Shown: positions 1,612 through 1,790 of the stretch, one piece after another | How the letters are laid out: the number at the start of each line of letters is the position of its first letter | Position numbering within the stretch: position 1 is the stretch's first letter | Assembly: GCA_026338065.1 (NCBI GenBank) | Contig: JAPKXI010000028.1 | Span: 1 to 47,543, forward strand | DNA: 47,543 nucleotides | Direction of reading: 5' to 3' | From: Lachnospiraceae bacterium | Lineage (GTDB): Bacteria > Bacillota > Clostridia > Lachnospirales > Lachnospiraceae | Position numbers and translations under genes: made by a program | The notes under the pieces: generated by a model | Told to the model about the DNA's origin: nothing | Seen by the model: only the letters and a program-made list of their open reading frames with translations | The model's database searches: none

Positions 1612-1790
1612 AAACTTGCATTTTTGAGTCAAATCGGATATTCGCAATCCGCTTTGCTACTTGCTCATAACCTCATAGCTGCTATCGCAGCTTTTCAGTG
1701 GGAGTCTGCACTCCCACTGAAACAAGGAAGTCCCCCACTTTCGCCTTGGCGGCTTAGAAGCGGGGGACTTCCTTGATGAGGTTAAAAAAT
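1612..1790 (+). repeat. Family C modular structured repeat, copy C1 (leader module plus full hairpin module)
   Basis: The module CATAACCTCAT-AGCTGCTATCGCAGCT-hairpins-GGGGGACTTCCTTGATGAGGTTAAA recurs at 25266, 31506 and 36163. It contains a perfect 14-bp stem caaggaagtccccc/gggggacttccttg and an outer aacctcat/atgaggtt pairing. Confidence 0.75.

Follow-up and report, generated by a model that had tools for sequence, protein, structure and literature searches.

The 47,543-nt window analysed here, from the Lachnospiraceae bacterium contig JAPKXI010000028.1, carries several copies of an intergenic repeat, family C, which is real, mobile and non-coding, measures ~160 nt and is present at high copy number in Lachnospiraceae of the mouse and human gut. 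On balance, we favor describing it as a non-coding, non-autonomous miniature inverted-repeat transposable element (MITE) in the broad sense, and best as a palindrome-associated transposable element (PATE) of the IS200/IS605 type. We prefer this description because the family has no open reading frame (ORF), no terminal inverted repeats (TIRs) and no target-site duplication, combines an adjacent pentanucleotide with a related terminal one, folds in a strand-specific manner, shows a strand bias and reuses its adjacent motif. It apparently adds a member not described before to a known class of small parasitic DNA elements, and no new kind of system is involved.

Copies in the window

An earlier sequence-only reading had placed family C at five positions, and a profile built from 28 diverse members and searched with nhmmer recovered the family at all five, with E-values from 2.7e-47 (C1) to 4e-5 (a leader-only piece). 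The list of copies was correct as far as it went, and lacked one short, oppositely oriented copy at 10626-10668 (C5). Some boundaries had to be moved: C1 starts at 1628, with 1612-1627 being flank, C3 at 31470 rather than 31506, and C4 at about 36149 rather than 36163. C1 to C5 denote the copies in the window, for which the strand given is the inferred folding strand, and L-numbers denote loci fetched from carrier genomes or metagenome contigs.

1628..1781, minus strand: C1, nearly full subfamily-I copy with leader (right end) and four-way junction (nhmmer E 2.7e-47)
1782..1786, minus strand: target motif TTTAA in the minus-strand reading (TTAAA on plus), adjoining the left end of C1
10621..10668 (10626-10668 without TTTAA), plus strand: C5, short subfamily-II copy in the minority orientation (nhmmer E 2e-6)
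25262..25367, minus strand: C2, hybrid leader and hairpin H1, flanking TTAAA at 25363-25367 included (nhmmer E 1.4e-14)
31470..31634, minus strand: C3, full subfamily-II copy, flanking TTAAA at 31630-31634 included (nhmmer E 3.3e-38)
36149..36276 (start approximate), minus strand: C4, subfamily II, flanking TTAAA at 36272-36276 included (nhmmer E 7.9e-23)
44183..44211, plus strand: solo right-end (leader) fragment CAAAGCGGATTGCGAATATCCGATTTGAC (nhmmer E 4e-5)

Mouse copies fall into two subfamilies, I (C1) and II (C3-C5), and the leader of C2 is a hybrid of the two. C1 has a short apex variant without CCAACCCA, and C2 is an internal-deletion derivative in which the long arm and most of hairpin H2 are gone. 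C3 and C4 had been taken to be leaderless; C3 in fact carries a diverged subfamily-II leader, GTCAAAGGAAAT(AAGGAAAT)TCGGAATCTGCTCC, with an 8-nt internal duplication. What is left of the C4 leader is TTCAAAAGAAATTTGTAATCC, 23 nt having been deleted from between two AATCC repeats, and H2 and the 5' arm of this copy are damaged. C5 reads TTTAA followed by TCTATCAAGGAAGTAGCGGAGCGAATTCCGAATTTCCTTTGAC, such that the start of the left end is joined to the right end and the entire junction is deleted. Reverse-complemented, the solo fragment matches the C1 leader at 30/30 bases.

Two of the copies have flanks 97.5-100% identical to contigs of the mouse-gut Lachnospiraceae metagenome-assembled genome (MAG) MGBC128194; the flanks of C1 are 100% identical to locus L041 of this genome over 80 nt on either side. 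The stretch analysed here is therefore assigned to the MGBC128194 species or one closely related to it. The orthologous copy of C3 in the same genome (L077 1064-1216) differs at ~6-7 positions in ~160 nt, five of them transitions, and the 80-nt flanks of the two are 97.5-100% identical. The C3 repeat thus seems to change faster than its surroundings, perhaps through deamination in extruded hairpins or through conversion between copies.

Abundance, hosts and recent spread

The count of copies and modules that the sequence-only reading had proposed was extended beyond the window. The pattern CTTTCGCCTTNNNGGCTTAGAAGC is present in at least 120 stretches of four mouse-gut Lachnospiraceae/Eubacteriaceae genomes, with many matches at contig ends and with varying architectures, and the leader motif GGAWATTCGSAATCCGCT in six IMG/VR contigs and at least 120 contigs of human-gut metagenomes. 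Such frequencies greatly exceed chance expectation. In a phage collection, family C matches nine faecal contigs that are unannotated and labelled 'Bacteriophage sp.', and the plasmid collection gave no match. All carriers identified are Lachnospiraceae/Eubacteriaceae MAGs or gut metagenome contigs. An exact-sequence search of the literature returned no match, and a search for Lachnospiraceae MITEs gave nothing relevant.

The alternative that the sequence-only reading had itself raised, that the copies are fragments of a known insertion sequence (IS) or a tRNA-derived short interspersed element, found no counterpart in plasmids, phages, Rfam or neighboring ORFs, and no tRNA-like region was detected at any copy by ARAGORN or the Rfam tRNA model. 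Family C has no ORF and is non-autonomous, not autonomous as had been claimed.

Copies are dispersed, each with unrelated flanks in both mouse and human loci. In MGBC136627, 21 full copies have a median identity of 99.4%, compared to 94.5% for the copies of MGBC128194, and the near-identity of copies within some genomes points to recent activity of the family. An element that is 162/165 identical lies upstream of orthologous genes in MGBC136627 and MGBC128194, with one compensatory pair among the differences and with unalignable flanks. These two copies (L007 6805-6969 and L075 5506-5670), in two species, have the same orientation and lie 126-154 nt upstream of orthologous 230-aa genes; the pattern could reflect horizontal spread, a site prone to insertion, or an ancient insertion whose sequence has stayed uniform.

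Boundaries and insertion rule

Full copies share identical boundaries at >70 unrelated sites. The left end is flanked by TTTAA in every copy listed, in a fixed orientation relative to the motif. At the right boundary, most of 160 distinct copies read TTGAC, the next commonest forms being TTGAT and TTAAC, and a T directly follows TTGAC in 58/69 cases. The two pentanucleotides, TTTAA and TTGAC, are alike except at positions 3 and 5. There is no complementarity between the outer ends, GTCAAATCGG... and ...GATGAGG, and the full element has no TIRs.

Three filled copies lie within another repeat family, whose many uninterrupted paralogs represent empty sites. Empty sites read ...GCTCA/TTAAG... (slashes mark junctions) and filled sites ...GCTCA[GTCAAATCGG...GATGAGG]TTAAA...; on the other strand, TTTAA/TGAGC when empty compares with TTTAA[CCTCATC...GATTTGAC]TAGGC when filled. 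There is no target-site duplication, and insertion is exactly 3' of TTAA on the folding strand (two sites). Head-to-tail elements in L058, L119, L191 and L049 meet at the junction TTTGAC/CCTATCAAGG, with TTTAA only upstream of the first element, as expected if one element had inserted at the TTTAA next to a copy already present.

Two other ideas were set aside. The leader is not an older repeat that was later entered by a hairpin MITE, given that empty sites lack the whole unit and solo leaders keep part of the P1 arm. Targeting of the IS110 type, by a bridge RNA, was discarded as the flanks conserve nothing beyond TTTAA/T.

A classical MITE derived from a DDE transposon, of the BOX/RUP/Correia type, would have the 22-nt arms TTTAACCTCATCAAGGAAGTCCC and GGGACTTCCTTGATGAGGTTAAA as its TIRs, a cut-and-paste transposase and a duplicated TTAA. 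Short, perfectly palindromic forms with TTAA on both sides (L003, L036, L045 and L048) look the part, both arms covary as expected of inverted repeats bound by one protein, and internal deletions and a modular organization are typical of Correia and BOX elements (PMC3049150). The boundaries speak otherwise: the dominant full form has a ~45-nt leader beyond the arms, which moves together with the element into unrelated surroundings, its outer ends do not form inverted repeats, TTAA is missing from the left flank, empty and filled sites differ by no duplication, and tandem junctions have no TTTAA between elements. Covariation moreover reaches side hairpins that no inverted-repeat model requires. 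We therefore regard this origin as very unlikely.

The same boundaries bear on the proposal that family C is a host-domesticated or passively spread repeat resembling repetitive extragenic palindromes (REPs) and bacterial interspersed mosaic elements (BIMEs), dispersed by recombination, gene conversion or a single-copy REP-associated transposase and serving chromosome-level roles. Several findings count against it: the ends are sharp and the same at >70 unrelated sites, next to a constant pentanucleotide; paralogous sites either contain the element or lack it precisely; MGBC136627 shows a burst of 99.4%-identical copies; and at ~160 nt, with a four-way junction, the element is far larger than the ~35-nt REP units. 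Such a history would fit the clustering of copies with other repeat families in intergenic 'graveyards', the apex inverted between arms in some copies, an element more uniform than its flanks across species, and the fact that no partner IS was found. Weighing both sides, we consider it improbable enough to be given little weight.

The repeat family that hosts the three insertions (L079 3998-4136, L001 2530-2684 and 3324-3453, L010 5330-5475, L101 2197-2301 and many others) is itself high-copy in the MGBC136627 and CANRVK genomes. Its center seemingly comes in two versions, which have GCTCATTAA before or after a small hairpin. It has AWATTCGCA ... ACT(T)GCTCAT(T)AA in common with the family C leader, which hints at a shared origin or a captured flank.

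Fold and covariation

In the orientation used by the sequence-only reading, the commonest form (~160 nt) starts with (A)GTCAAATCGGATATTCGCAATCCGCTTCGCTACTTGCTCAT and ends ...ATGAGG, followed by TTAAA. A closing stem, P1 (AACCTCAT), encloses a four-way junction formed with hairpin H1 (AGCTGC-TATC-GCAGCT), the variable 13-bp hairpin H2, and a long arm (CAAGGAAGTCCC ... GGGACTTCCTTG) that carries an apical sub-hairpin. In the predicted fold of C1, the TAA of the neighboring TTTAA pairs into P1. Folding, a check the sequence-only reading had suggested, yielded stable structures on either strand (z-scores -9 to -11.5), and the pairings described there, aacctcat with atgaggtt, caaggaagtccccc with gggggacttccttg, the H1 hairpin and a variable second hairpin, were right; all of them covary.

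Among 28 diverse copies, seven helices are backed by compensatory changes, with 24/50 pairs double-changed and 95% of cells paired. These values were reached by 0/500 shuffles, and slid controls gave 4-12 pairs. Human-gut relatives diverge throughout the stems, and the dominant human subfamilies contain G-U wobbles. With the minus strand of C1 folded we counted 65 G-U pairs, compared to 16 on the opposite strand; because of this asymmetry, we take the minus strand of C1-C4 to be the strand whose fold matters.

No Rfam family matched any family C copy in the search the sequence-only reading had proposed, and across the window only the transfer-messenger RNA (tmRNA) and two tRNAs pass the gathering threshold. 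Under permissive settings, the best matches on C1 were weak generic hairpins (18-28 bits vs thresholds of 36-100), with Clostridiales-1 at 18 bits vs a gathering score of 48.

Orientation and effects on host genes

The folding strand is the coding strand of co-directional neighbors at 30/38 mouse and 36/47 human loci (p ~4e-4 each; 66/85 in total), and it has positive GC skew in 64/77 loci. In Firmicutes, the strand of positive GC skew is the lagging-strand template. From the positive skew and the co-direction with genes, the folding strand would be the lagging-strand template. IS608 and ISDra2 prefer the lagging-strand template (PMC5027513). In the window itself, which comes from a spore-forming Firmicute with G+C of ~40% and has nearly all genes on the minus strand, the plus-strand GC skew is -0.2 to -0.4. 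This skew is unusually strong; in related loci it can be split into ~0.2 for the coding strand and ~0.085 for the replication strand.

At C1, the right end of the element provides the -35 hexamer of a predicted promoter, in which TG precedes the -10 hexamer, and a terminator-like hairpin lies on the other side of C1 from it.

1603..1632, minus strand: promoter-like TTGACT-18 nt-TG-c-TATACT (10/12 matches), upstream of the nicotinate phosphoribosyltransferase gene
77-1570, minus strand: nicotinate phosphoribosyltransferase gene

An outward promoter as a general function was rejected: -10 hexamers are not enriched 16-18 nt beyond TTGAC in 160 copies, and only C1 has a good hybrid promoter-like site. 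Insertion after terminator T tracts was seen for 13/162 copies, compared to 1.3% of control TTTAA sites. This ~six-fold enrichment is real yet minor, concerning only 8% of copies, and a preference for terminator tails was rejected as the main rule. The effects of family C on host genes look incidental.

The covarying fold and the orientation bias bring into play a different explanation, in which the structure is kept as a functional minus-strand RNA and mobility is secondary. Such an RNA might be an omega-RNA scaffold for a TnpB-type nuclease, with the flank beyond TTGAC as guide, or a cis-acting mRNA element (stabilizer, processing site or attenuator). Seven covarying helices and a G-U excess on the strand usually co-oriented with genes are what it would predict, the most conserved part is the 3' end abutting the variable flank, where a TnpB guide would start and with TTTAA as adjacent motif, and many short or solo right ends lie just after stop codons. 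A guide scaffold of this sort would account for the surplus of structure and for the conservation of the 3' end. PATEs are, in addition, often reported to encode omega-RNAs (PMC10055086). We nonetheless consider this explanation unlikely. There is no Rfam family match, nor any evident promoter or terminator inside the element; C1 has a terminator-like hairpin on one side and, on the other, a promoter-like site that takes the last six bases of C1 as its -35 hexamer, so that neither neighboring transcript need include C1. C3 too follows a terminator-like hairpin: read by eye, the hairpin and T tract of the gene at 31684-32145 lie directly upstream of it. About a fifth of copies are oppositely oriented, a great many copies are truncated or rearranged, which is not what a maintained RNA gene would show, and folded DNA also tolerates G-T pairs.

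Architectures and derivatives

Architectures were scored by BLAST in 121 sequences (120 fetched loci and the window). Full copies are found in 40, both side hairpins are missing in 17, and one side hairpin is missing in 7. Other forms comprise short fusions of the left start to the right end (as at 10626-10668), solo leaders, head-to-tail composites and perfectly palindromic arm-apex-arm forms; the human copies L173, L186 and L232 have extra or tandemly repeated hairpins in the leader spacer. Breakpoints fall on short direct repeats, for example ACTTGCT or ACTTCCT (in both leader and 3' arm) and AATCC (C4). The apical 23 nt of the long arm (CTTTCGCCTTGGCGGCTTAGAAG) are inverted in L080 6215-6390 and L083 6120-6211 relative to window positions 1628-1786; the segment that has flipped lies between the two hairpin arms.

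These forms qualify the BOX-like modularity that the sequence-only reading had described. An intergenic stem-loop repeat with internal hairpins present, absent or multiplied is indeed what we found; the modules are not independently shuffled. In place of 'mix-and-match modules', one ~160-nt master accounts for the variants through deletions, duplications and one apical inversion. The modules are thus real as structural units, yet they are derivatives of a single master, and would arise by slippage between short direct repeats, loss or duplication of hairpins, and loop inversion.

On four human-gut contigs (L140, L143, L208 and L247), a conserved gene encoding a protein with a ferredoxin-like CxxCxxCxxxCP motif ends in a stop codon that a solo right-end hairpin, AAGCGGATTGCGAATATCCGCTT, directly overlaps. 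The hairpin is a retained fragment in a 3' untranslated position.

Proposed assignment to the IS200/IS605 type

If family C is a PATE of the IS200/IS605 type, a Y1 HUH transposase (TnpA) supplied in trans would excise and reinsert it as single-stranded DNA, with TTTAA serving as its transposon-adjacent motif and TTGAC serving as its transposon-encoded cleavage motif. Transposition would proceed preferentially on the lagging-strand template. The circle junction of right end to left end would then read ...GATTTGAC/CCTCATCAAGG..., also written ...ATCCGATTTGAC/CCTCATCAAGGAAG.... Precedents exist for several of these features. The adjacent and encoded motifs of Geobacillus IS605-family elements (ISGst) stand in the same relation, differing at positions 3 and 5, and gene-less PATEs mobilized in trans are documented (PMC10055086); TTTAA is a known TnpB adjacent motif, that of ISAam1 (PMC12908284).

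Several observations weigh against this assignment. A cognate tnpA or tnpB was not found in ~1.9 Mb of fetched loci, a partial sample of each genome. Clustering all ORFs of these loci and inspecting the neighbors of solo ends revealed no recurrent transposase-like ORF close to >250 copies. No pair of left and right ends lies 0.4-4 kb apart, and no long element with family C ends was found in the ~1.9 Mb. The two ends have no obviously similar subterminal hairpins, unlike IS608, and the geometry also departs from IS608 in that TTTAA abuts the element and pairs into P1, while TTGAC overlaps the foot of the end hairpin. The left end is a large junction, and neither a clearly matching hairpin pair nor right-end guide bases were identified. 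The right-end hairpin AAGCGGAT-TGCGAAT-ATCCGCTT (helix 8) is conserved in sequence and shows no covariation. A covarying junction of ~40 pairs far exceeds the structure known to be needed by a Y1 transposase. The empty-site evidence comprises two sites and three filled copies, both sites being inside another repeat, and at one of them the TTTAA of the filled copies corresponds to CTTAA in the empty ones. Transcript-level selection would predict the orientation bias just as well, so the bias does not discriminate. Shared ancestry inflates the G-U asymmetry, part of which could be due to mutation because the strand skew is strong.

A more radical interpretation of the junction is conceivable. 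It could be a trans-acting guide-RNA scaffold, that is, an omega-RNA PATE with the flank beyond TTGAC as guide and TTTAA as adjacent motif, whose hundreds of copies per genome would programme a TnpB-type nuclease or repressor; or family C could belong to an undescribed class mobilized via a DNA four-way junction that pairs its own target into P1. We regard this interpretation as quite unlikely.

Comparison with known repeats

Like PATEs (PMC10055086), family C has no ORF, TIRs or duplication, inserts next to TTTAA and has a related TTGAC end; it also resembles them in its strand-specific folded ends, a bias fitting the lagging-strand template, high copy number and the lack of a linked transposase. 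Unlike PATEs, it has no cognate TnpA or TnpB in the sampled loci and its ends share no clear hairpin. It is, in addition, almost wholly one covarying four-way junction, with the adjacent motif pairing into the closing stem, and its hairpins have been extensively lost, gained and inverted.

Pneumococcal BOX elements are built as boxA-boxB(n)-boxC and have TIRs resembling those of ISSpn2 (PMC3049150). Family C likewise is intergenic and of similar size, often lies beside other repeat families, and has end segments that pair together; its end modules are combined with variable internal ones, such that internal hairpin units may be absent or multiplied with the rest of the fold undisturbed. In contrast to BOX, its hosts are Lachnospiraceae, not streptococci, and it has no TIRs at its true ends, no duplication, and a TTTAA/TTGAC boundary rule. 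The BOX analogy, in which BOX was compared by description, holds for organization only, not for membership or mechanism.

Correia elements of Neisseria duplicate a TA target and carry an integration host factor (IHF) site. They have 26-bp TIRs (Correia repeat enclosed elements, CREE; PMC3049150), and family C differs in having neither TIRs nor target duplication. The resemblance lies in a long hairpin-forming repeat of ~100-160 nt with full and internally deleted forms, and in an end that can donate a promoter hexamer (the C1 case), although such donation is not general in family C.

REPs are ~35-nt single hairpins with a conserved 5' tetranucleotide, often arranged as inverted pairs. Together with BIMEs and the REP-associated transposases (RAYTs), they form a system in which an HUH Y1 enzyme supplied in trans is proposed to act on intergenic palindromic repeats in the form of single-stranded hairpins (PMC3333891, PMC8266576). 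Family C is similarly palindromic and intergenic, with handling as a single-stranded hairpin by a trans-acting Y1 enzyme proposed. Unlike REPs, it is ~160 nt long, has several hairpins, occurs singly or head-to-tail, and has transposon-like adjacent and terminal motifs.

Neighboring genes and repeats

Other genes and repeat families of the window are as follows.

25630-27057, minus strand: GerA-type germination protein gene
32678-33043: tmRNA
36561-40241, minus strand: AddA gene
4432-4675, 14579-14823 and 28254-28500, plus strand; 10361-10552 and 43829-44072, minus strand; 1-54, truncated: family A (~245 nt)
24617-24756, 25383-25522 and 35793-35932, plus strand; 36346-36485, minus strand: family B (~140 nt)
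35921-36129: tandem array, 4 x 52 nt, between a family B copy and C4
14838-14940: tandem array, 3 x 34 nt, after a family A copy
36455-36524: tandem array, 2 x 35 nt, near a family B copy
24550-24620: tandem array, 3 x 22 nt, before a family B copy

Family A is a structured repeat and has 31-32-nt terminal arms (GCCAGAGT ... CTGT), the middle of which differs between copies and is 94-97% complementary within a copy. Its conserved flanks, ...ACA/GC...GC/GTCC, are unlike the TTTAA/TTGAC rule of family C. Family B has a nearly invariant 78-nt core and 31-nt arms, whose outer 20 nt are hypervariable between copies and 90-97% complementary within a copy; it matched no Rfam family above threshold. 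The 2 x 35 nt array looks like a duplicated and diverged 3' arm of the family B copy.

The adjacency of family C to family B that had been pointed out is real at two sites, and family C also adjoins family A (10626 by 10361-10552; 44183 by 43829-44072). The neighborhood with families A and B and the 52-nt array most simply reflects a shared tolerance of intergenic regions and T-rich targets.

Implications

The finding is of modest interest unless the guide-RNA interpretation is true. Family C is plentiful in Lachnospiraceae of the mouse and human gut, and it fragments metagenome assemblies, many copies being found at contig ends. It marks intergenic insertion hot spots and can be a source of promoter hexamers, as C1 illustrates. 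Genome annotation would gain from a covariance model of the family, which would also stop copies being taken for regulatory RNAs. Family C may also lead to its cognate TnpA and TnpB and, if an IS200/IS605-type enzyme does mobilize it, would offer a compact natural TTTAA substrate for studying single-strand transposition in gut Clostridia.

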